This document shows positions 1-59,584 of a stretch of 64,000 bases of DNA, one piece after another. The stretch comes from an uncultured Bacteroidota bacterium. GTDB lineage: Bacteria > CLD3 > SB21. The notes beneath the pieces are model-generated. The model was not told the DNA's origin, searched no databases, and was given only the letters and a program-made list of their open reading frames with translations. Position numbers and translations under genes: made by a program. The stretch's first letter is position 1. Each line of letters begins with the position of its first letter. The stretch lies in contig CAYPYN010000003.1 in NCBI GenBank assembly GCA_964415295.1, forward strand, positions 294,417 through 358,416. The letters are read 5' to 3'.

Positions 1-1169
1 CACGCGAGGGGTGTGTTATTATAACCGCTGGCGTGGCATTTCTGACATTGATCCTGAACCGTCAGATGACCGCCCGTCAAAGGGAATCGTGATGCGGCGT
101 GATCAAAAGCGGCCGGGGCCCACCCGGGATTGGTCGTGTGGCACGTCTCGCAATTCTGTGAATAGTTCCCGGAAACGTGATTGGGATCTGCGGCTTGCGT
201 GAAGTCGTTGCTGTGGCACGAGTAACATTGTTTCGAAGTATTCATGAATCCGCTGCCGTGACAGGACGAACATTGATTCCGTGCAGTATAATGGGCGCCG
301 GTCAGCGGGAAAGTCGTTACGGCATGATCAAACGATGCCGGCGACCAGCCGGGCGTTGTCGTGTGGCACTCCAGGCAATTTTTCGGATAATTGCCTGCGA
401 GATGTTTGGGATCGTTGGATTGGTCGTAATCGTTCTTATGACAATTGTAACAGTCGCCGGTCAACTTGTAATCCCCGTTCGTATGGCAAGCCGCACACGC
501 GATATGGGCGTGCGACTGGGTCAACTCAAAACCAAAAGATGCATGGTCGAGGATCCGTGCGGGGGACCAGCCCTGGGGTGTATGGCACGATTCGCATGCG
601 ATCGGGAAGTTTCGACCGGCATGGTCCGGGTTGGACGAAGTTCTGTAATCGGTCATATGGCATCCCGAGCAGGTGGTCGTCAGTCCTTTGAATTCGTTTT
701 GCTGTTGGTCTTTATGACAGCTTCGGCAAGCCGCGGTAGCATGTTTGCCCGTCAGAGGAAATCGGGTGAGATCGTGCTGGACTTTGAAATTAAATGGCTC
801 CCAGCTTTTGGAAGTATGGCACTGGTCGCATTGTTTTCCAAGCTGGCCTTTGTGGATATCATCGTGGCATTGGTAACATTGGTTTTTAGATCCGGTGAAT
901 TGAAAATTGGCATGGCAGGCCCTGCAGTCGCCGGCTTTGTGTTGTCCTTCCAACGGGAAATCGGTCTGGGTATTGTGATCAAATGCCATGTCCTTTCGGA
1001 TGCTTTTCCATTCGCCCGTCGCATGGCAGGCGTCGCAGGCGATCGATATCATACCATGCGGATTTTGCGTTTGCGCTTTTATGACCAACGTGTCCGGGCG
1101 CTCCTGGGCGCTCATAGCGGATCCTGAAAGAGCGGCCATTAAAAGCCAAGTGTAATAGCGTTTTTTCAT
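1..1169 (-). CDS. Multiheme c-type cytochrome, partial. The N-terminal 389 aa are in the window; the 3' end runs off the window start. Signal peptide MKKRYYTWLLMAALSGSAMSA. 14 CxxCH motifs.
   Basis: I translated the minus strand by hand from the ATG at 1167-1169; the frame is open to position 1. CxxCH motifs: CDACH, CRACH, CYQCH, CDQCH, CRSCH, CSGCH, CESCH, CAACH, CYNCH, CLECH, CSSCH, CYSCH, CETCH, CQKCH, with repeated FDH..FPL.G.H spacers. It is absent from the ORF track only because it is edge-truncated. The listed plus-strand ORFs 177..1127 and 281..691 are antisense shadows of it. Confidence 0.85.
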   Translation of the reverse strand, partial: MKKRYYTWLLMAALSGSAMSAQERPDTLVIKAQTQNPHGMISIACDACHATGEWKSIRKDMAFDHNTQTDFPLEGQHKAGDCRACHANFQFTGSKNQCYQCHDDIHKGQLGKQCDQCHTSKSWEPFNFKVQHDLTRFPLTGKHATAACRSCHKDQQQNEFKGLTTTCSGCHMTDYRTSSNPDHAGRNFPIACESCHTPQGWSPARILDHASFGFELTQSHAHIACAACHTNGDYKLTGDCYNCHKNDYDQSNDPKHLAGNYPKNCLECHTTTPGWSPASFDHAVTTFPLTGAHYTARNQCSSCHGSGFMNTSKQCYSCHSNDFTQAADPNHVSGNYSQNCETCHTTNPGWAPAAFDHAASRFPLTGGHLTVQDQCQKCHASGYNNTPLA

Positions 1170-1176
1170 ATTCGTA

Positions 1177-2901
1177 TTACTTTAAGTGGGCATGACAAGA
1201 TGAACACTTCGTATCTATCGGTTTGTAAACCGTCGTTACGATGCCGTTATTCAGAGTGACGCTCCGATGACACTTCACGCATTCGATCTTCTCGTGCGCC
1301 CCCGATAAAGGAAAACGCGACTGACGCGTATGGTCGAATGCCGCCGGTCTGAATCCGTTCTCGTTATGGCACCGTTCACATGGCGTGTCTCCCGACATGG
1401 TTTTAAACTGACCAAAATGAAAATCCGAATGACACGATTCACAGGCCGACGAAAGGCCTTTGTATTGGGTGTCCGAACTCTGTCCGGTGGAAGTCTTGTG
1501 ACACTTAACGCAGCCGACTTGGGCGTGTTTACCTTTCAATGGGAAGGCTGAATCTTTATTATGATCAAATAGGAGTTCATTCCAGGCATCCGTCCGATGG
1601 CATGACTCGCAGCCTGTTTTTGAGACCTTTTCTTTGAATTGGTCTTTGTGAATGTCTGTGTGGCAATCCGCGCAAGCCTTCGCCAAAAAGCGGAATACAA
1701 CGGTCGGTTCGGCGGGACGCGAATTCAGGCCGGTCCTCTTGCCGAATTCGTCTCCTGAGAGCCGATCATGGCACTGGTTGCATCCGACGGCCGCGTGAGA
1801 GCCGGTCAGTGGGAATTGTGAACCGGCGTGATCCGTGATCGAAAATATAGAAGGAGTGAAGCCGTTCGTGTTATGGCAGCGTTCACATCGGCCCTGGTCG
1901 GGTGTGGAACTAAATTGTTCGGCGTGGTTAAACTTGTGGCAATCGCGGCATTCGACGTACTTCAATCCCTTGAATTGCGCCTTTTTTTTGATGTCCGGCT
2001 GATGGCATTTTTCGCAGTTGACGGAGAGATGTTTGCCGGTCAATGGAAAGTTGGTCTTTGAGTGATCAAAGCCGCTTACTGTGACGTTTTGCCAGCCGCC
2101 GGGCACATGGCACTTTTCGCAGGTTTGACCAAATTTGTTGTTGTGCGGGTCGGTATGGCAAACGGTGCACTTATCGAATCTCATATCCGAAAGATTCATA
2201 TAATCGGGGTCGACCTGCCCGTTCGGCTTTTTTCTTGAGTCCGGAACCAAAACATGGCACTGCTCGCAGGAAGCCAATGAATGCCTTCCGGTCAAAGGGA
2301 ATCGGGTATTGCTGTGGTCAAATTTGGCTTCAACAGATCTCTTCCAGTCTTCGAAATCATGACATTCCGTACAAGGCTTTGTCATGTGGTTTCGATGTTC
2401 GTTAAAATGGCAATGGCGGCAGTCCTGACCTAATCCGAGGAATGTCCTCGATAATGAAAGTCCTTCGGCCGCCCGGTTCCGAACGGCATTGTCCTTGATG
2501 AATTCCGGTTTGTGGCAGCTTTCACACCTGGCGGTCTTGTGCTTACCTTCGAGCACGTATCCGGTTTGATCGTGCGAAAAACCGGTTTTGCCTCCTTCCC
2601 ACCTGATCATATCAAATTGACGACCTCTGTGTTCGGTGTGGCACTGAATGCATTCTTTATTTCGTACGGACGCTGAGCCGTGGAAGCCTTTATTCTGATC
2701 GATGCGGGACCGCAGCAGAGCATGGCACTCCAGGCATTTAGTCTTGTTGATCTTCTTTCCCAGATCATGGCATTGAGTGCATTGATTCATTCCTTCCAGA
2801 GAAGCGTGGGCATTGGTGAGGTCACCCGGCGAGAATTGGGCAAAAGCATTCCATGATAAAAGCAACAGCAGTCCGGTCGTATGTTTGAGAATGTGTTGCA
2901 T
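1177..2901 (-). CDS. Multiheme c-type cytochrome, 574 aa, 20 CxxCH motifs, Sec signal peptide (..WNAFA-QF).
   Basis: 20 CxxCH counted in the translation. Repeated c7-like modules F(D/S)HxxTxFPLxGxHxxxxCxxCH. Paralogous to the 589-aa MHC at 5106..6875 (near-identical N-terminus QFSPGxLTxAHASLEGxxxCTQCHDLGxKIN). Confidence 0.9.
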   Translation of the reverse strand: MQHILKHTTGLLLLLSWNAFAQFSPGDLTNAHASLEGMNQCTQCHDLGKKINKTKCLECHALLRSRIDQNKGFHGSASVRNKECIQCHTEHRGRQFDMIRWEGGKTGFSHDQTGYVLEGKHKTARCESCHKPEFIKDNAVRNRAAEGLSLSRTFLGLGQDCRHCHFNEHRNHMTKPCTECHDFEDWKRSVEAKFDHSNTRFPLTGRHSLASCEQCHVLVPDSRKKPNGQVDPDYMNLSDMRFDKCTVCHTDPHNNKFGQTCEKCHVPGGWQNVTVSGFDHSKTNFPLTGKHLSVNCEKCHQPDIKKKAQFKGLKYVECRDCHKFNHAEQFSSTPDQGRCERCHNTNGFTPSIFSITDHAGSQFPLTGSHAAVGCNQCHDRLSGDEFGKRTGLNSRPAEPTVVFRFLAKACADCHTDIHKDQFKEKVSKTGCESCHRTDAWNELLFDHNKDSAFPLKGKHAQVGCVKCHKTSTGQSSDTQYKGLSSACESCHSDFHFGQFKTMSGDTPCERCHNENGFRPAAFDHTRQSRFPLSGAHEKIECVKCHRSVTLNNGIVTTVYKPIDTKCSSCHAHLK

Positions 2902-2975
2902 CAGAAGCAGGTATTGAAGAATTCGTTCTATTTGAACCTTCGTTTTCGGATCAAGGAAGATTTTGTCTATTTCTA

Positions 2976-4280
2976 TTAGCGCAAGTAATAGTTCATTCTT
3001 ATGAAAACGGACGTATGGGGATCGGTGGCATTACCGATTTCCTCCGATGCCGTCAGAGCTCCGAAAAAATCTCTGGTGATCCTGTAACTCACATCGGCAC
3101 TGATGATCGACAGAAGATGGTTGCGGGCCGGCGTTTTGATATTCCACTGATACGTGTTCAGATTATAGGTCATCGTCGCATCGAGTCTGTTCTGCAGAAA
3201 ATCCCGGTTGAACCACAGCGCCGTCTGTATGTTTCTTAGCCATTGATTGGATGTGTAAGAGGCACTGATGCCGGTATTGAGCCGCACCCAAAAATAATTT
3301 CTATAACCGGTCCGAAGATCTGCGTAAATCAGATCGCCGTTACCGAACCGTTTTTTGAGAGTTGAAGAGATATCCAACATGCCGATCCGCGGATTATAGT
3401 AGGCGCGGTAATTGGTTGTAAGCGATACGTTCTTTTCGGTCGAAGAGTAAAAATATTTATCGGACGCATTTATCGTGTCCGTTCGTGTAAGAAAATGGGT
3501 TGTCCGGTTACGGTAGTCAAAGGTTGTACGGAAATTGAGTGATTTGTTGAAACGGTAATACACCGACGACTGTGAATAACCGATGAGGCTTTCATTGACA
3601 ATATATTGGGTTCGGTGATACAGGCGGAGGTTAGTAACTGGCTTATAGTCGCCGTACAAGTAGGCTTTCGTCAATGATGTGGACTCATACTTTTCGGCCG
3701 TAAATCCGAGGCCGGCCGACCAGAGGTTGTGCAAATGAATAAGACTGCCGCCGTAGTTATATCCGCGGCCCGTCGGATCGTTGCGGTAAAAATCGTTGAT
3801 CGTTCCGCCGAAAGCCGATAGATCGAACAGGTTGCCCAGCCGTATATTTTCTGCGGATACACCATTGATTGGGTAGGCGTCCACTACAGGCATGAGCGGG
3901 ATAATACGTCCAGCTTTGACTTGTCTGAAATTGTCGCCGTACGCGGCGTAAAGCTGCTTTACGATATAACGGTTTTGAAATCTTTGTCCTTCGGTTATAC
4001 CTTTCGTTCCGGTAAAGGTGTTTTTTTCATAATAGTCTATCTTGAACTGGTATTTGACCGCGCCAGAATTCGCATCAAATATCCGGTAATTCAGCATCGC
4101 GTAGTTGCTCAACGCGTTCAGGGACGACGAAGCGCCGGTTTGCGAATAGTAATTCCAAGTGGTTGATAAACGGCCGACAAGGTTCTTTCCGACGGGCATC
4201 GAAGGATTTTGCGCACCCACCGTCGCGTCCGCCAGGATCAGTAGAAATATCGTTTTCATGAGTATATCAAGATATTTCAT
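2976..4280 (-). CDS. Outer-membrane beta-barrel protein, putative porin partner of the cytochromes (~434 aa from the Met at 4278-4280; the ORF track extends it to 4331).
   Basis: Signal peptide MKYLDILMKTIFLLILADATVGA-QN. Rich in Y/N/T/G/S, with alternating hydrophobic/polar short strands typical of beta-barrels. Its start codon overlaps the stop of the upstream MHC-9 (ATGA at 4278-4282). It sits between multiheme cytochromes. Confidence 0.65.
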   Translation of the reverse strand: MKYLDILMKTIFLLILADATVGAQNPSMPVGKNLVGRLSTTWNYYSQTGASSSLNALSNYAMLNYRIFDANSGAVKYQFKIDYYEKNTFTGTKGITEGQRFQNRYIVKQLYAAYGDNFRQVKAGRIIPLMPVVDAYPINGVSAENIRLGNLFDLSAFGGTINDFYRNDPTGRGYNYGGSLIHLHNLWSAGLGFTAEKYESTSLTKAYLYGDYKPVTNLRLYHRTQYIVNESLIGYSQSSVYYRFNKSLNFRTTFDYRNRTTHFLTRTDTINASDKYFYSSTEKNVSLTTNYRAYYNPRIGMLDISSTLKKRFGNGDLIYADLRTGYRNYFWVRLNTGISASYTSNQWLRNIQTALWFNRDFLQNRLDATMTYNLNTYQWNIKTPARNHLLSIISADVSYRITRDFFGALTASEEIGNATDPHTSVFIRMNYYLR

Positions 4281-5044
4281 CAGTCGTCTCCTCCCTCGCC
4301 CTTGTGATCGAAGTCGTGGCATTCCCGGCATGTGTAAGTGGAGTAGTCGGGCGCATTCCGGTGGCAGGTTTCGCAGCTGCGGCGGTGATGACCGGTCAGC
4401 GAGAACCAGGCGTCAAGGTGCGGATAATCGTTCCAGCCGTTCATGTTGTGGCAGGCGAGGCAATCGCCGAGAGCTTCCCATTGCGCATGCTGAGGAGGAG
4501 CTCCGATGGCCCGGTGGCAGTCGGAACATTGATTCACATTGGGCATCTTGAATGTTATCAGATTACGGTGGCAATCCGCGCAATCAAGTCCGCGATGTCC
4601 TCCGATCATGATAAAGGTCTCACCGGTGTGATTGAAGGTCGAAGGCGCCCAGGCTTCTTCATTGTGACACCGTTCGCAATCGGGTCCGAGTTCGCCCTGG
4701 TGGGGCTCTTTGTGGCAGACGGCGCACTCGCGTATGGAGGTGTTGAACTTTCCGCCGGCGTGGCAGCTTTGGCAATTGGTTCGCTCATGGGCGCCGCGCA
4801 ATGGGAATCCCGTTTTCGTGTGGTCGTAATCTACATGCGGCTTTATGACTTTCCAGGAATCGGTGGTATGACAAACCTCGCATGGGAATTCAAACCGCTT
4901 GTGCGGAATTTTTACAAACGGCGTATCCGTTACCGCAAAATGTAATTCCGGCGATGCATTCACGTTCCAATCCAAATTGGCAGGGGCGGTGCCGAACCAA
5001 AGAGTCATACCGACGATCAGGCCGGCGAGAATGTTTTCACTCAT
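4280..5044 (-). CDS. Multiheme c-type cytochrome, 254 aa, 9 CxxCH motifs, with an N-terminal hydrophobic segment (signal peptide or membrane anchor).
   Basis: CEVCH, CQSCH, CAVCH, CERCH, CADCH, CSDCH, CLACH, CETCH, CRECH. Same module order as the partial MHC at 1..1169 (CxxCH..W..FDHxKTxFPLxGxH..CxxCHA..F..CxxCHxxxHxGxLGxxCxxCH). Confidence 0.9.
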   Translation of the reverse strand: MSENILAGLIVGMTLWFGTAPANLDWNVNASPELHFAVTDTPFVKIPHKRFEFPCEVCHTTDSWKVIKPHVDYDHTKTGFPLRGAHERTNCQSCHAGGKFNTSIRECAVCHKEPHQGELGPDCERCHNEEAWAPSTFNHTGETFIMIGGHRGLDCADCHRNLITFKMPNVNQCSDCHRAIGAPPQHAQWEALGDCLACHNMNGWNDYPHLDAWFSLTGHHRRSCETCHRNAPDYSTYTCRECHDFDHKGEGGDD

Positions 5045-5105
5045 AGTGTGTCTTATAGATGATTTGCATAAAAAGCTGTCTTAATGGAAAATCTGAACTT
5101 TGTTT

Positions 5106-6875
5106 CTATTTTAGCTCAAAAACGCCTTCGTGTTTATCCGGATGACAGGAGGCGCAATCCGACGCGACCGGTTTGTATAACGTGATGAGCGAGTCCGATT
5201 CTATTTTTGTGAGAACATGACACTTGGCACAGTCTACTTTCCGATGGGCGCCCGTCAAAGCAAAGACCGATTGTGTGTTGTGATCAAACAAGGAAGGTTT
5301 GAATTTCTCGGCATTGTGGCACCTCTCGCAATACGTGAGACGCCCGGACTCGACCGAATCGGTCTTTTGGGCAAACTGACCTTCGTGCACATCCTTGTGG
5401 CAGCTTTCGCAGAAGTTGGAGACCGGTTTGTATAATACCCATTTGGCCGGCGTACGGTCGTCCTGCGATTTATGGCATTTCTCGCACTTCGCCTCCTTAT
5501 GTTTCCCCAAAAGCGGGAATTCGGAGTCCTTGTCGTGATCAAATACCAAGTCCTTCCAACCTGTCACTTTATGGCAGATGTCGCAGTCGTATTTTTTGAG
5601 CTTTTCTGCAAATTGTCCACGGTGAATATCCGTGTGGCAAGAACCGCATTTGCGATCGGTGAATTTGAATAGCATCGCCGACGAATCTCCGGGTGCGGCT
5701 AAACCGGTTCGGGTTTTGAACACCGCCGGTTCCAGCTTGACATGGCATTTATTGCAGGTCGTTTTAATATGCGCGCCGGCCAGCACGTATTTCGACTCTG
5801 TGTTATGGCGTTCAACAGTGAAAAGCGAAGGAACGAATCCGCTCTCGTTATGGCATGCTTCGCATTTTCCTTTGTCAGCGCGGGAAGAAAACTGTCCGGC
5901 GTGAGTATCCTTGTGGCAATCCGTGCATTTGGAGAATGACATATTCTTGTAGGCCGCCGGTTTCTTCGGATCCGGCTGATGGCATTTGTCGCAGGCCACA
6001 TGCCGATGCTCTCCGATCAGCGGGTAACGCGTCTTATTGTGGTCAAAACCCTCCATCACGACGTGAGTCCACCCTAAAGCGTCGTGGCACTTGACGCAGT
6101 TCCGGCCAAATTTGTTTTGGTGCGGATCCTTATGGCAGGGCGTGCAATTGGAGAAATCCAGCTTCTTGTAATTCGCAAAATTCTGGTCCGTACTGCCGTC
6201 GGGTTTTTTCCGTACGTCTTCGGTCAGGGCGTGGCATTGGACGCATTCGACTTTTTGGTGCCGTCCGATAAGCGGATACTTTGTTTTACTGTGATCAAAT
6301 CTCGTCTTCACCGACTCTTTCCAGTTGTCAAAGTCATGGCATTGGCCGCACTTAGGATCCAGTTGTCCCCGGTGCTCATCAAAGTGACACGTCGCGCATT
6401 GCTGGGACAAACCCAGATGCGTATTTTTGATAGAGACAGTGACGCCGGACTGCAGTCGGACAGTAGGGGAAACAATTTGTTCGGGTTTATGGCATTTTTC
6501 GCACCGATCGGTCTTATGTTTACCTTCCAGTTTGTACCCTGTGAGACTATGATCAAAGGCCGACTTACCGCCCTCCCATCGGATCATTTTGAATCCGCGG
6601 CCCTTGTGTTCGAAATGGCAGGCGATGCACTCTTTAGAGCGAACGGAGGAGGAAGCGTGGTATCCTTTTCCGGCATCGACGCGCTCTTTGAGTTCCACAT
6701 GGCATGAAAGGCACTTCTGTCCGTTGATCTTCTGGCCGAGGTCATGGCATTGTGTGCAGTTGTCGGTACCTTCCAGAGATGCGTGGGCCTGAGTCAATTC
6801 TCCGGGTGAGAATTGAGCACGGGCGCTCGTTCCCGACAAAACAGACAAAGCCAAAGCGATCAGAACGCGTTTCAT
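5106..6875 (-). CDS. Multiheme c-type cytochrome, 589 aa, 20 CxxCH motifs, signal peptide (..SARA-QF).
   Basis: 20 CxxCH counted. Paralog of 1177..2901. Confidence 0.9.
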   Translation of the reverse strand: MKRVLIALALSVLSGTSARAQFSPGELTQAHASLEGTDNCTQCHDLGQKINGQKCLSCHVELKERVDAGKGYHASSSVRSKECIACHFEHKGRGFKMIRWEGGKSAFDHSLTGYKLEGKHKTDRCEKCHKPEQIVSPTVRLQSGVTVSIKNTHLGLSQQCATCHFDEHRGQLDPKCGQCHDFDNWKESVKTRFDHSKTKYPLIGRHQKVECVQCHALTEDVRKKPDGSTDQNFANYKKLDFSNCTPCHKDPHQNKFGRNCVKCHDALGWTHVVMEGFDHNKTRYPLIGEHRHVACDKCHQPDPKKPAAYKNMSFSKCTDCHKDTHAGQFSSRADKGKCEACHNESGFVPSLFTVERHNTESKYVLAGAHIKTTCNKCHVKLEPAVFKTRTGLAAPGDSSAMLFKFTDRKCGSCHTDIHRGQFAEKLKKYDCDICHKVTGWKDLVFDHDKDSEFPLLGKHKEAKCEKCHKSQDDRTPAKWVLYKPVSNFCESCHKDVHEGQFAQKTDSVESGRLTYCERCHNAEKFKPSLFDHNTQSVFALTGAHRKVDCAKCHVLTKIESDSLITLYKPVASDCASCHPDKHEGVFELK

Positions 6876-7483
6876 TTTACGTTTCCTAACATGGATCTGG
6901 CTTTGGAGGCGAACTCAGAATTGGGCTGCAGTTCTATCGTTCTGGAAAAATAGGTTCTCGCGGCATCGGTCTTTCCGATATTGGCATGAATCACGCCCAG
7001 GTTGAAAGTGGCCGTTATGTTGCCTTTATCACCGGCAAGAATCGAGTTAAGTTCGGCGATAGCCTTTTCGGGATTTCCGGAATTGAAAAAGCACACCGCG
7101 TAGTCATTGCGAACGTTGTTGTTGCTCGGATCGATGGAGAGGGCTTTGCCGTAGGGTTCGATCGCGTCTTTAAAGTTACCGTTATCATAAAGCAAGTTGC
7201 CAAGCTGAATAAGATGTTCCAGGTCGTTCGGGTTTTTTTGTAACTGTTCCTTGAGCATTTTGATATTCATCAGCGCGTCGTGATTGGACGGAACGGATTT
7301 TCCTGTTATCGATGAAGCTTCGGAGGAACCGGTTCCTCCAGGCATCGGGACATTCATCGACGGTTCATCGTGATGGTGGGTATCTATCCTTTCAGTTGGT
7401 TCGTCCTTATAAAGGATGAGAATAGCCACGACCATAAAGACTCCGCCAAAAACAAGCGGGTAAAGATTCTTCTTGGAATTCAT
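6872..7483 (-). CDS. Membrane-anchored TPR-repeat protein (CcmI/NrfG-like TPR; possible cytochrome maturation or complex-assembly factor).
   Basis: One N-terminal TM helix (LVFGGVFMVVAILILY), then TPR-like repeats (GNLLYDNGNFKDAIEPYGKALSIDP..). Embedded in the cytochrome operon; overlaps the downstream gene by 4 nt. Confidence 0.55.
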   Translation of the reverse strand: MNSKKNLYPLVFGGVFMVVAILILYKDEPTERIDTHHHDEPSMNVPMPGGTGSSEASSITGKSVPSNHDALMNIKMLKEQLQKNPNDLEHLIQLGNLLYDNGNFKDAIEPYGKALSIDPSNNNVRNDYAVCFFNSGNPEKAIAELNSILAGDKGNITATFNLGVIHANIGKTDAARTYFSRTIELQPNSEFASKARSMLGNVK

Positions 7484-7496
7484 AAATCTCCTGCGG

Positions 7497-8375
7497 TTAA
7501 AAGATCCAGGTGTATCCGAATAAGAAAGCTACAACGATATGGGCGATCAAGATCACACCCATAATGATCGTAAAAGGCATGTGAATCACGTGCCAGTGCC
7601 GGAAAAGCTTTTGCACGGTCACGAGGGTCTGAATTTGACGCTGGATTCGCGACCGGTCCAGAAACAAATGTCTGACGGCATACAGATGTTCGTGGGCCAC
7701 GTTTTGCAGTTCGAGGTGTTTTATGGCACGGTGGATCTGGAAATAGCGTTTGATATCGTACCACATGAGCTTGGGCAATGTGGTAAAGAAGGAAGCCCGT
7801 TCATCAGAAACAAATGCAAATGTCAGGGCATCAAAGCTCTGAATTTGTTCTTTTGCCAATCCGTACTCCGTCGACAGCGTTTGAGTTATCAGATTGAGAT
7901 GTTTCTGGAGTTCCGATGCGGTCAGATCCTTTCCCGAAAGACTTTTGGGAATAAGGAGGTAGATATACCGGCCCAGAATGCCGCTCGCCACGACGCAGAC
8001 CATGCTCCAGAAGCTGACGGCCACGATGCCGCCGAATTTGAAGGCCGAATGGTAGAGTATGAGAGCCGGTCCCAAGAGGCAGAGAAATATGTGGAACTCC
8101 AGAACGTGTTTGATCTGCCCGAAGCCGGCAAGCAGGCTCCAGCGCTTGCGCAATGAATAAAGAGCCACGCCAATGATCATCATGAAAGTTCCGATGAATC
8201 CCATACCGTGACCCCAGAAACCGACCGGGCTCAGGTTTTCGTGCATGGGATGAAGATTGCGTTCTTCGACAGGTGTGGCGTAATAGTCCGAACCGTAATA
8301 ACCGATCAAAACGACGGTGCCCAATCCGACGACCGTCATGGTCCATATGAATATGCGGTGTGCAATTTTGTTCAT
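7497..8375 (-). CDS. His-rich 4-TM integral membrane protein, 292 aa. Putative di-heme b-type quinol dehydrogenase / membrane electron carrier. Paralog of 9272..9823.
   Basis: Predicted TM helices with invariant His (HEF, ILYHS, HWHVIHMP...IAHIV). Clear alignment to the 183-aa protein (AYSLRK, HEF, L(I/V)xH, SG(I/L)xG(R/K)Y(I/L)). No family recognised by eye. Confidence 0.6.
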   Translation of the reverse strand: MNKIAHRIFIWTMTVVGLGTVVLIGYYGSDYYATPVEERNLHPMHENLSPVGFWGHGMGFIGTFMMIIGVALYSLRKRWSLLAGFGQIKHVLEFHIFLCLLGPALILYHSAFKFGGIVAVSFWSMVCVVASGILGRYIYLLIPKSLSGKDLTASELQKHLNLITQTLSTEYGLAKEQIQSFDALTFAFVSDERASFFTTLPKLMWYDIKRYFQIHRAIKHLELQNVAHEHLYAVRHLFLDRSRIQRQIQTLVTVQKLFRHWHVIHMPFTIIMGVILIAHIVVAFLFGYTWIF

Positions 8376-8402: not shown

Positions 8403-9281
8403 TTAGTCGTCATTTTCCTTATGTTTAGAGTCGTGTCTGTCCCGGCCGTCTTTCTTGACTTCGTGTTTGTTTCCGCTGCGGTGACAACGCACGCAGTTCT
8501 GGTAGTCGCTGATACCTTCCTCCTCATGTTCCTCGCGGATCTTGGCGGGTGAGTGCTCGTGGCACCCGTAACAGGAATAGGAACGGAAATCATCTTTGGT
8601 ATGGCATGTGGCGCATTCCGTCCGATGGTCTTTGTCAAATCGGAAGTACCGGTCGTGATCATACGTTGCCGGTTTCCATGCTTCGGTAGTGTGGCAATGT
8701 CCGCACGCCGTGTCTATAAGCCGGTGCAGCGCATCCTCCGGCTTGTTATGACAAGCGGTACACGCCATCTGCCGGGACGAATCCAATACGGCATGATCAA
8801 AACGCGCCGGTTTCCAAACCGTAATGTCATGGCAGTGGACGCAGGATGCAGAAATGACCCGGTGAATCCGGTCACTAGGCCGGCTGTGGCACTGCTCGCA
8901 TCGGCTTTTCAGAGAGTCCGGTAAGACGTCGTGGGAAAAAGTACGGCCGGCATAATGGCGCCCAAGATGGTCCAAGTGGCATGCAGCGCATGGCTGTACT
9001 TCCAATTGTCTATGAAATGCCGCCGGCTTTCCAGTTGAGTCCATAGGTGTACCGTCGACTTTGAATAGACCGATCTGCTCGGGTCGATGGCATGTTACGC
9101 ATTTGTCCCGCGTAATTCCGCGAAATGCGGAATGGCAGGCAAAACAATCGTTATCTATTTGTTGATGCGCCAAGATCAGATCGCCCGGATTAAGCATGGG
9201 TTCCGGATAATACAGCATGATAGCGGTATAACCAACGCCTGCCAGAATAGTCATGAGGAGCATCAGCCATTTCATCGCCAT
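8403..9281 (-). CDS. Multiheme c-type cytochrome, ~293-320 aa, 10 CxxCH motifs, N-terminal TM anchor. Start probably at the Met at 9281 or 9275.
   Basis: CFACH, CVTCH, CAACH, CEQCH, CVHCH, CTACH, CGHCH, CATCH, CYGCH, CVRCH. Hydrophobic N-terminus WLMLLMTILAGVGYTAIMLYY. Confidence 0.85.
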   Translation of the reverse strand: MAMKWLMLLMTILAGVGYTAIMLYYPEPMLNPGDLILAHQQIDNDCFACHSAFRGITRDKCVTCHRPEQIGLFKVDGTPMDSTGKPAAFHRQLEVQPCAACHLDHLGRHYAGRTFSHDVLPDSLKSRCEQCHSRPSDRIHRVISASCVHCHDITVWKPARFDHAVLDSSRQMACTACHNKPEDALHRLIDTACGHCHTTEAWKPATYDHDRYFRFDKDHRTECATCHTKDDFRSYSCYGCHEHSPAKIREEHEEEGISDYQNCVRCHRSGNKHEVKKDGRDRHDSKHKENDD

Positions 9282-9823
9282 CCCCAAAATATAAAAATCG
9301 TCAGTATGTGAAGAAATGCCAGCAAACAAAAAAGCAAGGTAATGGGAAGATGCACCAACCTCCATTTTTTCATTAACTCAAAAGTGACGGCATTCAGAAA
9401 CACGCTTTTTCCCGTTTCCTGGGTCCCTGTGGATTCAAGTATCGTCTGAGAGCGCTTGAGCAGATATTTCCCCGTCAGGCCGCTTACAACAGCCATCACC
9501 ATGGCCGCCAGACCATACCAAGGAAGCCAGGCGTTGAAATGAATACCGCCATGGACCAGGATCATCAGGGAACCCGACCACGCGAGAAATTCATGCCAAC
9601 CCAGCAGGGTTTTATGAGAGCCTTTTGAGATGAAGTTGTACTTGCGAAGAGAATAAGCAAAGGATGCGAGAATGAATAGCGCTCCGGATATTCCAAAATA
9701 GCGTCCTATCCAGGCATAACCTAAAACATGAAGAATCCAATCAACCAGAATGGCGCCTCCGATCAATGCACCAAATAGGATCGTAAGAGGCAGGATATCT
9801 TTGAATAATAGAGTATGCTTCAT
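9272..9823 (-). CDS. His-rich 4-TM integral membrane protein, 183 aa; paralog of 7497..8375.
   Basis: Four hydrophobic helices with conserved His (ILHVLGY, GWHEFLAW, LVHGGIHF, LVHLP..FLHIL). Confidence 0.6.
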   Translation of the reverse strand: MKHTLLFKDILPLTILFGALIGGAILVDWILHVLGYAWIGRYFGISGALFILASFAYSLRKYNFISKGSHKTLLGWHEFLAWSGSLMILVHGGIHFNAWLPWYGLAAMVMAVVSGLTGKYLLKRSQTILESTGTQETGKSVFLNAVTFELMKKWRLVHLPITLLFCLLAFLHILTIFIFWGWR

Positions 9824-9835
9824 TTTAACTACTCG

Positions 9836-11158
9836 TTAGAACACTCTTTCTTTCTGCATGAATTCTATTCCGATCTTTTTAAGGAAGGGTGTCGGTAATT
9901 CGCCGCCCGCAAAAACAAACACAAAATCGTTTTCGATCTCCTTGTCGCCATCCGTTGTTTGGATGATTACAGACTTTTCTTTGATTTCCTTGGTAGTCGA
10001 ATTATAAAAGATCTTGATCAGGCCGTTGGCTTCGGCCTCTTTGATGCGATCCTGATTTTTTTGTTTGGCTTTTGGAAAGGCATCTCCCGTGTTAACCAGA
10101 GAAACGACTGTGCCCTTTTGTTTGGAAAGGCCGACGGCCGCTTCCACGCCGGCGTCACCGGCTCCGACGACCAGGAGCTTGCCGTTCTCATATTTGCCGG
10201 CATCGATTAACTGGTAAGTGACTTTTGAGGTATTTTCACCGGGCACGTTTAGTTTTCGTGGAGTACCGCGCCTTCCTAATGCGAGTACGAGATTATTGGC
10301 AAGAAATTCGGCTCCGGAGGCTGTTTGTATGCGGAGGTGTCCGTTTTCCCGAGTAACGTTTTCGAGTTTCTGATTGCATTGAACGCTCAACCCGGTCTTT
10401 ATGATGATATGATTCCACAATTCCAATAATTCTTCCTTACTCAATTCCTTCTTACGCATCCATCCGTATTTCGGGATTTCAACCGGCACCGTCATCACCA
10501 GTTTCTGGCGGGGATAACTTAGTATAGCTCCTCCGGGCGTATCTTCTTTTTCGATCAGGATGTAATTGAGTTCATTCTCGATCGCTCTGAGTCCGGCGCT
10601 GAGTCCGGCGGCTCCTGCACCTACGATGGCGACGTCGTATACGCCCGCGGTTCGTTTCGAAGCCTGGTATCGGGCCTTTTCCGAGATCGCATCGATCACA
10701 TGTTTCCCCTGGAAGATCGCATTGCGGAGAAGGGCCATACCGCCGAGTTCGCCGATCAGATAGACATTCGGGATATTGGATTCATACGTCTCATCAAGCA
10801 GAGGTATTTCAGCGACCGATTTGGTGGGATTCAGCACGATCTTGATTCCGGAGACCGGACAGGCTTCGGCGCAAATGCCGTGGCCAACGCATTTGGCCGG
10901 CAGCACAAGTTCTGCAACGCCGTCGATCAGTCCGAGAGCGCCTTCCGGGCAAGCGATCACACAGGATGAACAACCAATGCACAAAGACTGGTCCACACGC
11001 GGATGCTGCGCAACCGGTTTGTCTTTGCCCAAGGCTATGGCCTGATCGCGCTTCTTTTGCTGTTTCTTACTGCTCCGGCGCACGATGACGACATACGGAA
11101 CAAAAATGATTAATAGCAGTCCAACGGACAGCAGCAGCGTCCACAGCGATTCGTTCAT
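9836..11158 (-). CDS. Membrane-anchored 2x[4Fe-4S] ferredoxin domain fused to a TrxR-like FAD/NAD(P)H oxidoreductase (FNR-like flavoprotein).
   Basis: N-terminal TM helix. CIGCSSCVIACP and CVGHGICAEACP cluster motifs. GxGxxG dinucleotide folds VAIVGAGAAGLSAG and LLVVGAGDAGVEAA. No CxxC redox disulfide. Confidence 0.8.
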   Translation of the reverse strand: MNESLWTLLLSVGLLLIIFVPYVVIVRRSSKKQQKKRDQAIALGKDKPVAQHPRVDQSLCIGCSSCVIACPEGALGLIDGVAELVLPAKCVGHGICAEACPVSGIKIVLNPTKSVAEIPLLDETYESNIPNVYLIGELGGMALLRNAIFQGKHVIDAISEKARYQASKRTAGVYDVAIVGAGAAGLSAGLRAIENELNYILIEKEDTPGGAILSYPRQKLVMTVPVEIPKYGWMRKKELSKEELLELWNHIIIKTGLSVQCNQKLENVTRENGHLRIQTASGAEFLANNLVLALGRRGTPRKLNVPGENTSKVTYQLIDAGKYENGKLLVVGAGDAGVEAAVGLSKQKGTVVSLVNTGDAFPKAKQKNQDRIKEAEANGLIKIFYNSTTKEIKEKSVIIQTTDGDKEIENDFVFVFAGGELPTPFLKKIGIEFMQKERVF

Positions 11159-11254: not shown

Positions 11255-11677
11255 CTATTCCGGCTTGTAGGTCTTTATCATGACAAGATGGATCGTCACG
11301 GCGACGGCAATAGCGACGAGCAGCGCACCGACGTACCAGGGCATAGAGGTAGAAAAAATGGAAATCGTGATCGTAACCCACAAAACAAAAATCGAAGTGA
11401 TCTTGACTGAAAGAGGAGTTCCGCGGTTCTCTTTGTAGTCTTTGATTAAACGGCCGAAGTAGCGGTTGTGCAGTAACCAATGGTAGAATCGGGGCGAACT
11501 GTGCGCGTAACATGTCGCCGCCAGAAGCAGAAAGACCGTGGTGGGCATAAGCGGAAGGATAGCTCCGATAATTCCCAGTCCGACGAAGATGTGCCCCGAG
11601 AAAATGAGAAAGGTCCGGCTCAGCCGGCTCATTTCTTTATCTTCCGTTTTCTTATCTTCTTTGGAATAGTTCGTCAT
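11255..11677 (-). CDS. YbaN/DUF454 family inner-membrane protein.
   Basis: Small 2-TM protein with GHIFVGLGIIGAILPLMPTTVFLLLAA, typical of DUF454. Confidence 0.65.
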   Translation of the reverse strand: MTNYSKEDKKTEDKEMSRLSRTFLIFSGHIFVGLGIIGAILPLMPTTVFLLLAATCYAHSSPRFYHWLLHNRYFGRLIKDYKENRGTPLSVKITSIFVLWVTITISIFSTSMPWYVGALLVAIAVAVTIHLVMIKTYKPE

Positions 11678-12675
11678 CTTTTTCCCTGAATGAATTCACA
11701 CGCCAATTCTACGTCGTATTTACTGCCGATAATAAGAGGTACCCGTTGATGAAGATCGGTGGGTTCGATGTCAAGAATGCGTTTGCGTCCCGTGGAAGCC
11801 ATGCCGCCGGCATGTTCGATCAGCATGGCCAGAGGATTGCCCTCGTAGAGCAGCCTCAACTTCCCATTGGGATTGGATTTATCCTCCGGGTAGAGAAAGA
11901 TTCCGCCATACAATAAATTGCGGTGAAAATCGGCCACCAGCGATCCGATATAGCGGGACGAATAGGGGCGTTTGTCTTCTTTATTATCTTCCTTGAGGAA
12001 ATCGATGTATCTGCGCACGCCCTCCGGCCATTTATTGGTGTTACCTTCGTTGATGCTGTATATTTTGCCGCGTTCCGGCGTACGGATATTCTCGTGGGAA
12101 AGGACGAATTCGCCCAAACTCGGATCGAGCGTGAATCCGTGAACCCCTTGTCCGGCGGTATAGACAAACATGGTACTGGAGCCGTAGATGATATAACCGG
12201 CGGCCACCTGCTGAATGCCGCGCTGTTTGCACATATCGGTTTCACTGACATTGGCATTGGGATATTTTCTAAGGATGGAGAAAATTGTTCCCACGCTCAC
12301 ATTGGCATCGATGTTGGAGGATCCGTCCAGCGGATCGAAATTGATAATGTATTTTCCACCGGGGATCGTATCTTTCAGACTCAGCGGATGTTCCATCTCT
12401 TCCGATCCCAGCATGTAAATCTCCCCTCGTCCGCCGGAAATGATATTGACCAGAGTATCATGAGAGAAGATATCGAGTTTTTTGACCGCTTCGCCGTGTA
12501 CGTTTTCCGTTCCTGTCATGCCCAGGACGTCCACCAGCCCCGCCCGGTTCACTTCGTGCGCAATGATCTTTCCGGCCAACGCGATGTCGGTCAGAAGACC
12601 GGATAATTCGCCCGTAGCCTCGGGATGCTTTCTCTCCATGTCAATGATATGGCGATCGATGGTTTTAAAACTCAT
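11674..12675 (-). CDS. fbp: Fructose-1,6-bisphosphatase class I.
   Basis: Length and motifs of class I FBPase (e.g. GSSTMFVYT, EGNPLAMLIEHAGG). Confidence 0.9.
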   Translation of the reverse strand: MSFKTIDRHIIDMERKHPEATGELSGLLTDIALAGKIIAHEVNRAGLVDVLGMTGTENVHGEAVKKLDIFSHDTLVNIISGGRGEIYMLGSEEMEHPLSLKDTIPGGKYIINFDPLDGSSNIDANVSVGTIFSILRKYPNANVSETDMCKQRGIQQVAAGYIIYGSSTMFVYTAGQGVHGFTLDPSLGEFVLSHENIRTPERGKIYSINEGNTNKWPEGVRRYIDFLKEDNKEDKRPYSSRYIGSLVADFHRNLLYGGIFLYPEDKSNPNGKLRLLYEGNPLAMLIEHAGGMASTGRKRILDIEPTDLHQRVPLIIGSKYDVELACEFIQGKR

Positions 12676-12757
12676 GAGAATACCTGCTCTTTCTATACGT
12701 TCTGCCGGAACGCATGAAGTGATGAGTGAACCGGATGTAAGTGGAATTTATGTTGAA

Positions 12758-13666: not shown

Positions 13667-13676
13667 AGGGTATTAT

Positions 13677-30271: not shown

Positions 30272-30344
30272 TGGGCCATCAGGGATTTGAACCCCGGACC
30301 AAAGGATTATGAGTCCTCTGCTCTAACCGCTGAGCTAATGGCCC
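30272..30344 (-). tRNA. tRNA-Met (anticodon CAT). Elongator-type; could be tRNA-Ile2 if lysidinylated.
   Basis: Folded by hand into a 73-nt cloverleaf: GGGCCAT acceptor, GCTC/GAGC D-stem, anticodon loop CTCATAA, T-loop GGTTCAAATCC. G1-C72 pair, and no GGG/CCC in the anticodon stem, so not an initiator. Confidence 0.85.
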
Positions 30345-59509: not shown

Positions 59510-59584
59510 GGGCGCTTAGCTCAGTTGGTTTAGAGCGTCTCGTTTACACCGAGAAGGTCCTTGGTTCGAATCCATGAGCGCCCA
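59510..59584 (+). tRNA. tRNA-Val (anticodon TAC).
   Basis: Folded by hand into a 75-nt cloverleaf: GGGCGCT/AGCGCCC acceptor, anticodon loop TTTACAC, T-loop GTTCGAATC; one mismatch in the T-stem. Confidence 0.9.

Follow-up and report, generated by a model that had tools for sequence, protein, structure and literature searches.

Porin-cytochrome conduits are a route by which Gram-negative bacteria send electrons to, or take them from, minerals, electrodes and partner cells; to our knowledge, experimental tests have been limited to the Mtr and Geobacter Pcc types. The 64,000-nucleotide stretch of DNA analysed here (the window) comes from an uncultured Bacteroidota-like (FCB-group) bacterium and carries a run of multiheme cytochrome (MHC) genes together with a gene for an outer-membrane β-barrel. 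A preliminary description proposed that a unit of 20-heme MHC, small MHC and barrel had been duplicated in the manner of Geobacter, with one copy cut by the window edge. Is the locus such a duplication, and to which kind of conduit does it belong?

Gene content and organisation

All of the open reading frames described for the region are present, and all lie on the minus strand:

1..1169 (minus): giant MHC, N-terminal 389 aa, with a Sec signal peptide and 14 CxxCH; the gene exits the left edge of the window
1177..2901 (minus): MHC20b, 574 aa, 20 hemes, module 2; Sec signal ending AQ/FSPGD
2976..4280 (minus): barrel1, 434-aa outer-membrane β-barrel, module 1
4280..5044 (minus): MHC9, 254 aa, 9 hemes, module 1
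5106..6875 (minus): MHC20a, 589 aa, 20 hemes, module 1; Sec signal ending AQ/FSPGE
6872..7483 (minus): TPR protein, 203 aa, membrane-anchored; Pfam TPR_CcmH_CycH, 49.5 bits
7497..8375 (minus): IMP292, 292-aa inner-membrane protein with five predicted TM helices
8403..9281 (minus): MHC10, ~290-320 aa, 10 hemes, N-terminal TM anchor; accessory
9272..9823 (minus): mem183, a short IMP292 paralogue paired with MHC10
9836..11158 (minus): Fe-S flavoprotein, 440 aa, first gene of the cluster (Pfam and hydropathy)

The genes overlap by 1-4 nt or are separated by gaps of at most 74 nt throughout, with the start of MHC20a overlapped for 4 nt by the stop of the TPR gene. The gap between barrel1 and MHC20b holds no terminator-like site, and counts from a scan for sigma-70 promoters and terminators equal the shuffle expectation. 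We consider it likely that the region forms the distal end of an operon of 11 genes, in which two anciently diverged tandem modules share one inner-membrane module. Module 1 comprises MHC20a, MHC9 and barrel1 (22 strands, AlphaFold2), and module 2 comprises MHC20b, a giant repeat-built MHC and barrel2, which lies outside the window.

Every MHC of the locus starts with a Sec-type signal peptide and contains repeat domains of the cytochrome c7/c3 type (Pfam PF14522 and PF14537; PF14522 gives 82 bits for MHC20a, 48 for MHC9, 76 for MHC20b and 52 for the partial giant, with a gathering cut-off of 24.8). Unlike MtrC and OmcB, none carries a lipoprotein cysteine after the signal peptide, and no T9SS C-terminal domain is evident in the giant; the lack of either surface-export signal on the MHCs speaks against their serving in a conduit.

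Two modules and their history

The 589-aa and 574-aa MHCs, each with 20 CxxCH and 29 aa per heme, had been taken for paralogues, and pairwise alignment bears this out. They are 51% identical over 579 aligned residues (full length, 610 bits) and 46.8% identical outside the C/C/H motif columns, with z=48 relative to 100 shuffles preserving CxxCH positions, and their heme-spacing fingerprints are nearly identical. MHC20a, which finds no match in a PDB sequence search, has orthologues at 75-76%, and MHC20b has orthologues at 68% (locus L001) and 63% (L002). Each copy groups with cytochromes from loci that hold a single module: MHC20a with its counterpart in L006, a locus with barrel1 only (54-55%), and MHC20b with the MHC20 of barrel2-only loci (L010, 54-55%) and not with MHC20a (51%).

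The second MHCs of the two modules differ greatly in size. Although the cut gene was described as a small 9/14-heme MHC, the part inside the window is the first third of a giant one: it shares 72% identity with residues 1-392 of an L001 protein of 1197 aa and 44 hemes and repeats the first 13 heme intervals of that protein. Counterparts in syntenic relatives have 900 aa and 32 hemes or 1197 aa and 44 hemes, and are built from a 9-heme head followed by (25,35,15) three-heme repeats: 75-aa (225-bp) tandem units carrying three hemes each, at 27 aa per heme. In the visible N-terminal part the repeats have already diverged (71% at 225-bp spacing), and TRF reports no tandem repeat in window positions 1-7000. 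The T+S+A+G+N fraction is 0.42-0.47 in the giant versus 0.28-0.32 in MHC20. At least 26 CxxCH are seen in the giant of the source organism, a count that covers the gene except for its middle; in L004, barrel2 is adjoined by the last 362 aa of a giant of this type. A search with the partial giant returned ~1500 generic MHCs, all of at most 680 aa, and the source's own full-length giant is not among these matches. We rejected a reading of the giant as a fusion of MHC24 and MHC15, since MHC24 is the best match for either end (at the C-terminus, 59.5% vs 41%).

MHC9 (9 CxxCH) and the partial MHC (14 CxxCH) were also said to be alike. They are 33% identical over 223 aa and align better in register (114 bits) than out of register (74-81 bits), but their z of 12.0 is no better than that of MHC9 with MHC20a (12.7). 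What specifically points to kinship is the colinear heme spacing from the N-terminus, 36,16,16,32,18,22,29,15 in MHC9 and 37,16,16,34,19,25,33,15 in the partial MHC, so the claimed likeness stands on spacing and not on score. The 9-heme head is common to the giant, to MHC9 (72% identical to its L001 orthologue and 58% to that of L006) and to the small barrel-adjacent MHCs of other loci. These cytochromes are modular: MHC9 is the 9-heme head of the giant, which adds 75-aa three-heme units. The locus thereby shows a route by which such cytochromes grow.

The longest barrel1 reading frame has 451 aa and reaches 4331; the likely start, MKYL, gives 434 aa and a 1-nt overlap with the MHC9 stop. The AlphaFold2 model is a 22-strand β-barrel (pLDDT 78.5). 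A second barrel was expected beyond position 1, and there is one: P0162 (barrel2, 554 aa) and the window proteins share one NCBI contig of 500,451 bp, and the barrel2 model has 22 strands and a small extra N-terminal β domain (pLDDT 76.3). In L004 the barrel2 gene overlaps the end of the giant MHC gene (stop codon) by 4 bp. L004 is a Logan assembly of the sample that also yielded L003, a contig whose barrel1 product is identical to that of the window, and adjacency of giant and barrel2 in the source rests on this same-sample assembly and the shared 500,451-bp contig. An exact look-up in a gene-position index gave no entry for MHC20b, and barrel1 led to a single Logan contig of 2.4 kb. Because the cut gene is the N-terminal third of a giant, barrel2 does not follow immediately beyond the edge, as "just upstream" had implied, but at least ~1.1 kb and probably 1.5-2.4 kb further on. 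The unit of 20-heme MHC, second MHC and barrel is therefore present twice, and in both copies the end of the second MHC gene and the start of the barrel gene overlap by 1-4 nt.

By profile-profile comparison the two barrels, 19% identical, are remote homologues: hhalign aligns them at 98.2% (E 4.8e-14, 382 columns). Neither family has a sequence match in Pfam, NCBIfam or PDB. In Foldseek comparisons the barrels fall among generic porins, ushers and AlgE (OccK- and AlgE-like), and the top matches of barrel2 include 24-strand usher barrels, which pass folded proteins; MtrB is not in the top 50. Both this likeness to generic porins, ushers and AlgE instead of MtrB and a bore of 22 strands, narrower than the 26 of MtrB, are observations that speak against a conduit. 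Only 15 relatives of barrel1 were found by a word-indexed search of a 5.8-billion-protein collection, and its profile has no match in JGI metagenome contigs. The barrel family comprises 2774 representative clusters at E<=1e-3, without a Pfam or NCBIfam model; those that were examined belong to FCB-group/Bacteroidota or unclassified genomes, and more distant relatives have ~890 aa and an AMIN domain.

Could the apparent duplication be nothing but the generic similarity of c7/c3 multiheme proteins, with the barrels unrelated neighbouring outer-membrane proteins? The equal scores of MHC9 against MHC20a and the partial MHC would fit such a view, as would the marginal direct BLAST match between barrel1 and barrel2 (E 0.002-0.024). 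For the MHC20 pair, however, it is refuted by the off-motif identity and shuffle score, and the aligning barrel profiles, their equal predicted strand number and the colinear spacing of MHC9 and the giant head tell against it elsewhere. The three-part arrangement also recurs around both barrel families in many assemblies, and we regard this explanation as extremely improbable.

The duplication is ancient, as judged from the identities of the MHC20s (51%) and the barrels (19%). At the DNA level the copies are linked only by short diverged repeats, 60-87% identical at an offset of 3977 bp, and the locus is therefore neither a recent duplication or product of gene conversion nor an assembly artefact; a chimera is further excluded by an arrangement common to three independent assemblies. 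In L001 the whole two-module arrangement lies on one contig, and in L002 it can be followed up to the giant MHC, at which that contig stops. Elsewhere each module stands by itself beside inner-membrane genes of its own (L006 and L007 for one; L010, L011, L017 and Emticicia for the other; also L016 and L012), and a homologous single module resides on plasmid pEMTOL02 of the cultured Emticicia oligotrophica DSM 17448, an obtainable carrier. Because each module occurs alone in other lineages, the tandem state may have come from juxtaposition or differential loss instead of local duplication. In either case, two old paralogues in tandem offer a natural experiment on outlet specificity.

Possible electron input and path across the envelope

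The inner-membrane genes suggest how electrons might enter. IMP292 carries HX13H at 95 (TM3), WX3HX13H at 265 (TM5) and SGILG at 131 (TM4), the W at -4 being found only in the second HX13H motif by a motif and hydropathy scan. It is conserved in all related loci, with 41% identity to the Emticicia homologue and 26.6% (E 9e-7) to one on an Alteromonas plasmid. The related mem183 has HX13H at 77 and 158 and SGLTG at 114. Two HX13H pairs on two TM helices recall ferric-reductase-domain proteins (NOX/FRE, MsrQ/YedZ), and a di-heme-b signature has been noted for the inner-membrane proteins of PCC3 and PCC4 (PMC5566968). IMP292 is a putative di-heme b, ferric-reductase-domain-like transmembrane electron carrier. 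Both IMP292 and mem183 stand beside a gene for a cytoplasmic flavoprotein, as in NOX (FAD/NADPH domain plus FRD) or Fre-MsrQ. However, unlike ferric-reductase-domain proteins they have five TM helices and not six, unlike NOX the flavoprotein is separate, with a TrxR fold and two 4Fe-4S clusters, and neither matches Pfam Ferric_reduct (E 3.5, mem183 only).

Behind an N-terminal TM anchor and a run of basic residues, this flavoprotein has a 2x[4Fe-4S] ferredoxin domain and an FAD/NAD(P)-binding fold of the pyridine-nucleotide-disulfide-oxidoreductase type (Pfam Pyr_redox_3/Pyr_redox_2 and Fer4 families). It co-occurs with IMP and barrel in L006, L007, L010-L012, L015-L017, L019, L020, L025, L027 and Emticicia, and we propose it as the cytoplasmic electron input. 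The TPR protein, with its CcmH/CycH-type domain, is a probable cytochrome c maturation helper; its gene position is conserved in L001, L002, L006, L007, L010, L011 and L017, and the Emticicia cluster carries ccsA at its upstream end. MHC10 is present in the window and L001 and absent from L002, L006 and L010. Over its full length it is 24% identical to a 7-heme MHC that neighbours an IMP on plasmids of Alteromonas macleodii.

Judged by analogy with PCC3 in the first place, and also with MtrCAB and Geobacter Pcc, and with protein localisations that are themselves inferred, the locus most likely encodes two outlets of different reach for electrons crossing the cell envelope. Electrons would enter through the di-heme-b-like IMP292 from the membrane-anchored Fe-S flavoprotein, from quinol or from both. 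They would then pass to a 20-heme cytochrome, long enough to span most of the periplasm, and through a barrel-sheathed contact to an outer cytochrome. The 9-heme outlet would have a short reach and the giant one a reach of tens of nanometres. Such a path could serve reduction of Fe(III), Mn(IV), humics or a partner cell, or else uptake from Fe(II) or a cathode; export is slightly favoured by the nature of the conserved partner, a cytoplasmic oxidoreductase of the NAD(P)H/ferredoxin type. A more specific version, which we advance tentatively and with considerable doubt, is that flavoprotein and IMP form a split, NOX-like, quinone-pool-independent exporter feeding the 20-heme wire, so that one inlet serves two old outlets, a 9-heme stub and a giant of >30 hemes, adjusted in length as copies of the 75-aa three-heme repeat are gained and lost. 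It would imply a possible quinone-independent electron input.

Two other readings accept the modules and dispute what they do. Inward-running conduits, oxidising extracellular Fe(II), a mineral or a cathode as proposed for Gallionellaceae PCC3, seem to us rather unlikely, though they have several points in their favour. The closest architecture, PCC3, is found in Fe(II) oxidisers; a DUF5777 fused monoheme cytochrome/β-barrel, Cyc2-like, is conserved three genes downstream of barrel2 in L001, L008 and L010; and Emticicia is an aerobe. Set against this, the partner that is always linked is a cytoplasmic flavoprotein of the NAD(P) type with ferredoxin clusters, and inward flow from Fe(II) to NAD(P)+ would be steeply uphill and would have to oppose the membrane potential. 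In Lentimicrobium the cluster was linked to electron disposal onto conductive carbon (PMC13013709), and heme wires are in principle reversible. The other reading makes the locus a periplasmic and inner-membrane redox device, such as an electron store (capacitor) or a reductase of soluble substrates, with the barrels as substrate or product channels and not wire sheaths. It would account for MHCs that lack surface-export signals and for barrels that are smaller than MtrB and resemble solute porins and polymer exporters (OccK, AlgE), but it does not explain why translational coupling of MHC and barrel persists even at 22-27% barrel identity. A giant, low-complexity, repeat-expanding cytochrome is moreover the type of the extracellular partner in PCC3, and the usher barrels matched by barrel2 pass folded proteins. 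We hold this second reading to be distinctly unlikely, and retain the two-outlet conduit.

Comparison with known porin-cytochrome systems

In the Geobacter ombB-omaB-omcB/ombC-omaC-omcC clusters the porin gene comes ahead of those for a periplasmic cytochrome of 8 hemes and a lipoprotein cytochrome of 12, and the copies are nearly identical. In Geobacter sulfurreducens, Pcc consists of tandem units of a porin and two cytochromes, proposed to take electrons through the outer membrane (Liu et al. 2014; Shi et al. 2014, PMC4245776). The present locus shares this tandem repeat of a porin and two-cytochrome unit, and to that extent the comparison drawn in the preliminary description was apt. It does not extend further: here the order is MHC20 / MHC9 or giant / barrel, the hemes number 20 + 9 and 20 + >26 without lipoprotein signals, the copies are ancient and only 51% (MHC20) and 19% (barrels) identical, and PCC3 fits better. 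With MtrCAB of Shewanella oneidensis the locus has in common the general principle of a barrel-sheathed heme wire and an outer cytochrome. Its MHCs, however, score far below the cut-offs of the DmsE/MtrA and OmcA/MtrC NCBIfam models used for MtrCAB/MtoAB (TIGR03508, 28-43 bits against 192; TIGR03507, 13 bits against 209), the barrels have 22 strands and not the 26 of MtrB, and the MHCs, unlike the lipoprotein MtrC, lack a lipoprotein cysteine. Membership in Mtr or Geobacter Pcc can be rejected, since gene order, heme counts, family scores and strand number all fail.

A Lentimicrobium MAG (Bacteroidota) enriched on conductive carbon is reported to have a porin cluster with adjacent 61- and 20-heme MHCs (PMC13013709). 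This "gigantic porin-multiheme cytochrome cluster" (Nat Commun 2026), compared by its text only, matches MHC20, giant and barrel2, and that text mentions no tandem second module, IMP or flavoprotein. The locus probably explains this "gigantic PCC cluster without synteny to known modules".

The closest known kind, likened by architecture and motifs from published descriptions, is PCC3 of iron-oxidising Proteobacteria such as Sideroxydans lithotrophicus ES-1 (He et al. 2017, PMC5566968; Hoover et al. 2023, PMC10734462). PCC3 is described only in Alpha-, Beta- and Gammaproteobacteria, whereas the present host belongs to the FCB group/Bacteroidota; the only proteobacterial link that we found is the Alteromonas plasmid IMP homologue (26.6%, E 9e-7), which sits in a porin-less MHC and IMP pair. 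The locus also differs in its two diverged tandem modules and in its constant extra partners, the membrane-anchored Fe-S flavoprotein and the CcmH-like TPR protein. Many PCC3 porins are predicted to be very large, with up to 42 strands, unlike the 22 in both models here.

Nonetheless, all four component types of PCC3 (barrel, ~20-heme MHC, large MHC and IMP) are present, and if one starts from the opposite end, the neighbourhood follows the PCC3 order of barrel / large MHC / ~20-heme MHC / IMP. Outer-membrane barrel genes, with 22 predicted strands each, adjoin MHC genes. MHC20a and MHC20b, predicted to be periplasmic, correspond with 20 hemes to the ~21-heme type of PCC3, which has 21-27 and is proposed to span the periplasm (PMC10734462). 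The second, extracellular MHC of PCC3 has 10-85 hemes, a range also given as 10-35, with internal repeats, few aa per heme and a T/S/A/G-rich composition (PMC5566968). Its counterpart in module 2 is the putatively extracellular giant, with 32-44 CxxCH in orthologues, and the 9 hemes of the module 1 cytochrome fall just below 10-35. The PCC3/PCC4 IMP has ~300 aa, five TM helices, SGXXG on TM4 and two WX3HX13H on TM3/TM5 (PMC5566968), and IMP292 shares this plan, with W at -4 in the second motif only. The locus thereby connects the uncharacterised PCC3 architecture of iron oxidisers with a large, unannotated barrel family.

Gene content and paralogy of the cluster

The left end of the window carries minus-strand genes for multiheme cytochromes (MHCs), an outer-membrane beta-barrel and membrane partners, given here in the order of transcription.

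Genes of the cluster in the window
9836-11158, minus: membrane-anchored Fe-S/FAD oxidoreductase (flavoprotein), first in the direction of transcription
9272-9823, minus: mem183, membrane protein of 183 aa
8403-~9281, minus: MHC10, TM-anchored, 10 hemes
7497-8375, minus: IMP292, membrane protein of 292 aa
6872-7483, minus: CcmH-like TPR protein
5106-6875, minus: MHC20a, 589 aa, 20 CxxCH
4280-5044, minus: MHC9, 254 aa, 9 CxxCH
2976-4280, minus: barrel1, 434 aa
1177-2901, minus: MHC20b, 574 aa, 20 CxxCH
1-1169, minus: partial MHC, 389 aa visible, 14 CxxCH, running off the left edge of the window

Counting of CxxCH motifs bears out the heme numbers of the preliminary description (20, 9, 20 and 14). 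The genes are tightly packed, with gaps of at most 74 nt or overlaps of 1-4 nt, and a terminator scan found no terminator-like hairpin in the 74-nt gap between the barrel1 and MHC20b genes. From the sequence, co-transcription of the cluster appears likely. The flank upstream of the cluster (beta-eliminating lyase, DeoC aldolase, class 1 FBPase) is syntenic with a related locus, L010; this flank and the other genes listed for the window lie at 11674-14705, 19984-21360, 30272-30344 and 59510-59584. The rest of the window includes genes for SelA (selenocysteine synthase), fumarase, a UPF0182 protein and a CHASE2 adenylate/guanylate cyclase, as well as two tRNA genes, and no rRNA that could place the organism was found in it.

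The two 20-heme proteins had been called paralogs, and pairwise alignment confirms this. MHC20a and MHC20b align end to end with 51% identity (610 bits), remain 46.8% identical when the heme-motif residues C, C and H are left out, and score 48 SD over shuffles in which every CxxCH is held fixed; their heme-spacing fingerprints are nearly equal. Paralogy of MHC9 and the partial MHC is a weaker case. These proteins share 33% identity over 223 aa, with 114 bits in register versus 74-81 out of register. The shuffle test gives MHC9 a z-score of 12.0 against the partial MHC, which is no better than its 12.7 against MHC20a because a common c7/c3-like repeat underlies all of these proteins. The specific evidence for the pairing is colinear heme spacing: 36, 16, 16, 32, 18, 22, 29, 15 in MHC9 and 37, 16, 16, 34, 19, 25, 33, 15 for the first nine hemes of the partial MHC.

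A giant cytochrome and a second barrel beyond the window

A scan for syntenic loci in one genome per species yielded two, L001 (an uncultured Bacteroidota MAG) and L002 (an unclassified MAG). Directly downstream of MHC20b, L001 has a gene for a protein of 1197 aa and 44 CxxCH, and L002 one for a protein of 900 aa and 32 CxxCH. The 389 residues in the window match residues 1-392 of the L001 giant with 72% identity and exactly the same heme spacing, so the cut gene is the N-terminal third of a giant cytochrome whose length varies, and not the small MHC of 9 or 14 hemes proposed earlier. The giant consists of a 9-heme head, 75-aa three-heme units (spacing 25, 35, 15) and a C-terminal cap. Four of the units in L001 are still 80% identical in DNA, with a period of 225 bp (tandem repeats at L001 9432-10883; the L002 giant gene is at 11751-14453). 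These repeats, together with the length difference between close relatives, therefore indicate ongoing gain and loss of three-heme units; the repeats are probably also the reason that short-read assemblies break within the gene. The C-terminus of the giant is 59.5% identical to a 24-heme protein (MHC24), versus 41% to a 15-heme one (MHC15); the giant is an orthologue of MHC24 that repeats have lengthened. In the source organism its C-terminus is expected to read ...CHPHGLVATGKIKKIIK. Near this end (L004 2-1090; L001 7782-11375) are conserved atypical CX3CH motifs (CENGCH / CETGCH / CQNGCH) and a conserved Gly-rich CX8-9CH (GCGGGSGDGAGCH). Both might bind extra hemes, in which case the true heme number would exceed the CxxCH count.

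The L001 giant gene shares 4 nt with the next gene, which encodes a 562-aa heme-free protein ending ...ELSYKF. A 554-aa homologue that is 64% identical to it, P0162, is recorded on an NCBI contig of 500,451 bp, a length also recorded for the contig of the window's own proteins. P0162 is found as well on L004, a Logan contig of run SRR8109493; another contig of that run, L003, encodes a barrel1 that is identical to the one in the window. Upstream of the barrel gene in L004, and again overlapping it by 4 nt, is the end of a cytochrome gene that encodes 362 aa with 12 CxxCH; this stretch shares 77% identity with the C-terminus of the L001 giant. Radical-SAM and baeRF genes come after the barrel gene, an order that L001 shares. 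Thus, the second barrel predicted just beyond position 1 does exist (P0162; L004, L001), but the giant MHC intervenes. The source organism's giant gene is seen at its two ends, the N-terminal part in the window and the C-terminal part in L004, which places the barrel at least 1.1 kb from position 1, or ∼1.5 kb or 2.4 kb away if the gene is as long as in L002 or L001, respectively.

Direct BLAST relates barrel1 to this second barrel (barrel2) marginally, with E values of 0.002-0.024. Comparison of family profiles (A1, 15 sequences; A2, 27) aligns 382 columns with 98.2% probability and an E value of 4.8e-14, matching barrel1 31-438 to barrel2 150-557, and weak reciprocal profile-sequence matches are also present. 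AlphaFold2 models have 22 strands each (pLDDT 78.5 for barrel1 and 76.3 for barrel2), and the barrel2 model also has a small beta domain at the N-terminus (residues 29-102) along with a disordered linker. Foldseek against the PDB returned only generic outer-membrane barrels for both (OccK/OpdQ porins, AlgE, FimD/PapC ushers), with MtrB absent from the top 50 matches, and sequence searches of Pfam, NCBIfam and the PDB gave no match for either family. The barrel2 family is large: a cut-off of E≤1e-3 takes in 2774 representative clusters, and one of E≤1e-30 takes in 1048. Every named member seen is annotated ‘hypothetical protein’, and the sole organism label is ‘FCB group bacterium’. A word-indexed search found 15 relatives of barrel1, and its profile had no match among JGI metagenome contigs. 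Barrel1 is a rare, divergent branch.

Distant barrel2 relatives of ∼890 aa (L012 7255-9939; P0184-P0193) bear an AMIN domain (PF11741) and cluster with two MHCs (23 and 25 hemes), an IMP292-like protein and the flavoprotein, as a larger-barrel version of the system. Three genes downstream of barrel2, a conserved DUF5777 protein (L001 15454-17144; L008 6333-8366; L010 14024-15710) combines a PSCyt1-like monoheme cytochrome c at its N-terminus with a ‘membrane bound beta barrel’ domain, a fused cytochrome-porin architecture like that of Cyc2. The next gene encodes a small cytochrome c, with one heme in L001 and two in L008, or in L010 a 138-aa protein, and this pair is separated from barrel2 by radical SAM and baeRF_family10 genes.

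History of the modules and their occurrence elsewhere

Orthologues in the window and L001 are 65-76% identical, and paralogues are ∼51% identical in both genomes; the split therefore predates the two lineages. The duplication is ancient, and two paralogous modules stand in tandem: module 1 (MHC20a, MHC9, barrel1) and module 2 (MHC20b, the giant, barrel2). The preliminary description of a duplicated unit of 20-heme MHC, second MHC and barrel was right in outline and is corrected as to what the cut gene is, how old the duplication is and which known system comes closest.

Single modules occur elsewhere, and each of them has its own genes for the Fe-S flavoprotein, the IMP and the TPR protein. 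The barrel1 type consists of MHC20, MHC9 and barrel1 (L006/L007). The barrel2 type has MHC20, a 24-heme MHC, a 15-heme MHC and barrel2 (L010, L011) or, in a shorter form, MHC20, a giant MHC and barrel2 (L017, L024, Emticicia); L015 and L016, also of this type, have an additional 10-heme MHC adjoining the barrel. The L006 MHC20 groups with the ‘a’ copies (54-55% versus 47-49% identity) and that of L010 with the ‘b’ copies (54-55% versus 46-49%). L010 also has both flanks of the window's lineage, with the lyase, DeoC and FBPase genes upstream and radical SAM, baeRF and DUF5777 genes downstream, and therefore, relative to L010, module 1 and the mem183/MHC10 pair of the window are extra material in a conserved frame. 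The tandem could have arisen by an old tandem duplication and subsequent losses, or module 1 could have been inserted later, and we favor neither.

A tblastn search of plasmids with IMP292 and barrel2 identified a cultured carrier, Emticicia oligotrophica DSM 17448. Our literature search found no paper tying Emticicia to multiheme cytochromes.

Cluster on Emticicia plasmid pEMTOL02
ccsA, 1028 aa
IMP, 281 aa: 41% identical to IMP292, with its motifs conserved
NAD(P)-binding Fe-S flavoprotein, 440 aa: 39% identity
MHC, 635 aa, 23 CxxCH: 35% to MHC20a
MHC, 1001 aa, 40 CxxCH: 44% to the L001 giant
barrel, 538 aa: 22.5% over its full length to barrel2, E 4e-28

A possible electron route and known systems

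IMP292 has five hydrophobic segments, HX13H motifs at 95 and 265 (WX3 before the second) and SGILG at 131, features kept in all relatives examined. Between its gene and that of the flavoprotein lies an accessory pair (8403-9823, minus): mem183, a short IMP292 paralogue that also carries two HX13H motifs and SGxxG, and its partner MHC10. L001 has the pair, whereas L002, L006 and L010 lack it. Alteromonas macleodii plasmids (L014) have a similar pair, a 252-aa IMP and a 7-heme MHC, with a 2Fe-2S protein upstream and adjoining hydrogenase genes. The CcmH/CycH-type TPR gene is conserved directly upstream of MHC20, and in Emticicia (L013 2198-5284) the cluster opens with a gene for a fused CcsA, with those for the IMP and the flavoprotein following. 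The TPR protein and CcsA suggest dedicated cytochrome c maturation help for very heme-dense substrates.

The flavoprotein has two 4Fe-4S motifs and an FAD/NAD(P) fold, and its bulk is placed in the cytoplasm because its TM helix is followed by RRSSKKQQKKRDQ. Its gene adjoins that of the IMP and/or barrel in every sufficiently long related locus (window 9836-11158, minus; L006, L007, L010-L012, L015-L017, L019, L020, L025, L027 and L013). This linkage suggests a NOX-like split electron input, instead of or alongside quinol oxidase.

Beyond the observed composition, paralogy, predicted barrel fold, signal peptides, gene linkage and modular cytochrome growth, we propose a route for electrons. The flavoprotein may couple NAD(P)H or ferredoxin straight to IMP292 in a NOX- or Fre-MsrQ-like manner, and IMP292 would take electrons over the inner membrane on two b hemes. 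The 20-heme proteins might be wires crossing the periplasm: MtrA spans roughly 8-9 Å per heme, at which 20 hemes would reach about 160-180 Å. The barrels would sheathe the contact of inner with outer cytochrome, and MHC9 and the giant would be the outer parts, reaching about 7 nm and >25 nm. None of the cytochromes of the cluster was found to have a lipoprotein or T9SS signal. Electrons could flow in either direction, and the location of each MHC relative to its barrel is a proposal.

Geobacter had been cited as a parallel for the duplication, and the architecture and IMP motifs of the porin-cytochrome cluster PCC3 match better. Five TM segments, HX13H and SGxxG define the ∼300-aa inner-membrane protein of PCC3/PCC4, which He et al. 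likened to a di-heme ferric-reductase domain and for which they proposed a quinone-linked role (PMC5566968); IMP292 bears these defining motifs. PCC3 combines a porin and the IMP with two MHCs, one periplasmic (median 21 hemes, with 21-27 in Gallionellaceae) and one extracellular (PMC5566968, PMC10734462); the latter has a median of 34 hemes, repeats, abundant T/S/A/G and low aa/heme (PMC5566968). In module 2, MHC20b with its 20 hemes fits the periplasmic component, and the giant resembles the extracellular one, with 32-44 hemes, 27 aa/heme and a T+S+A+G+N fraction of 0.42-0.47 (0.28-0.32 in MHC20). Module 1 fits with a minimal outer cytochrome. As far as its published description goes, a porin-MHC cluster reported for a Lentimicrobium MAG from a conductive-carbon enrichment (PMC13013709), in which MHCs of 61 and 20 hemes neighbor each other, is very probably of the same module type. 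The present cluster differs from PCC3 in its FCB-group host phylum, its smaller barrels, the constant membrane-anchored two-4Fe-4S FAD/NAD(P) protein and the CcmH-like TPR protein. Likened by architecture and motifs rather than by PCC3 sequences, it is a PCC3-like system of FCB-group bacteria, composed of two ancient paralogous modules in tandem.
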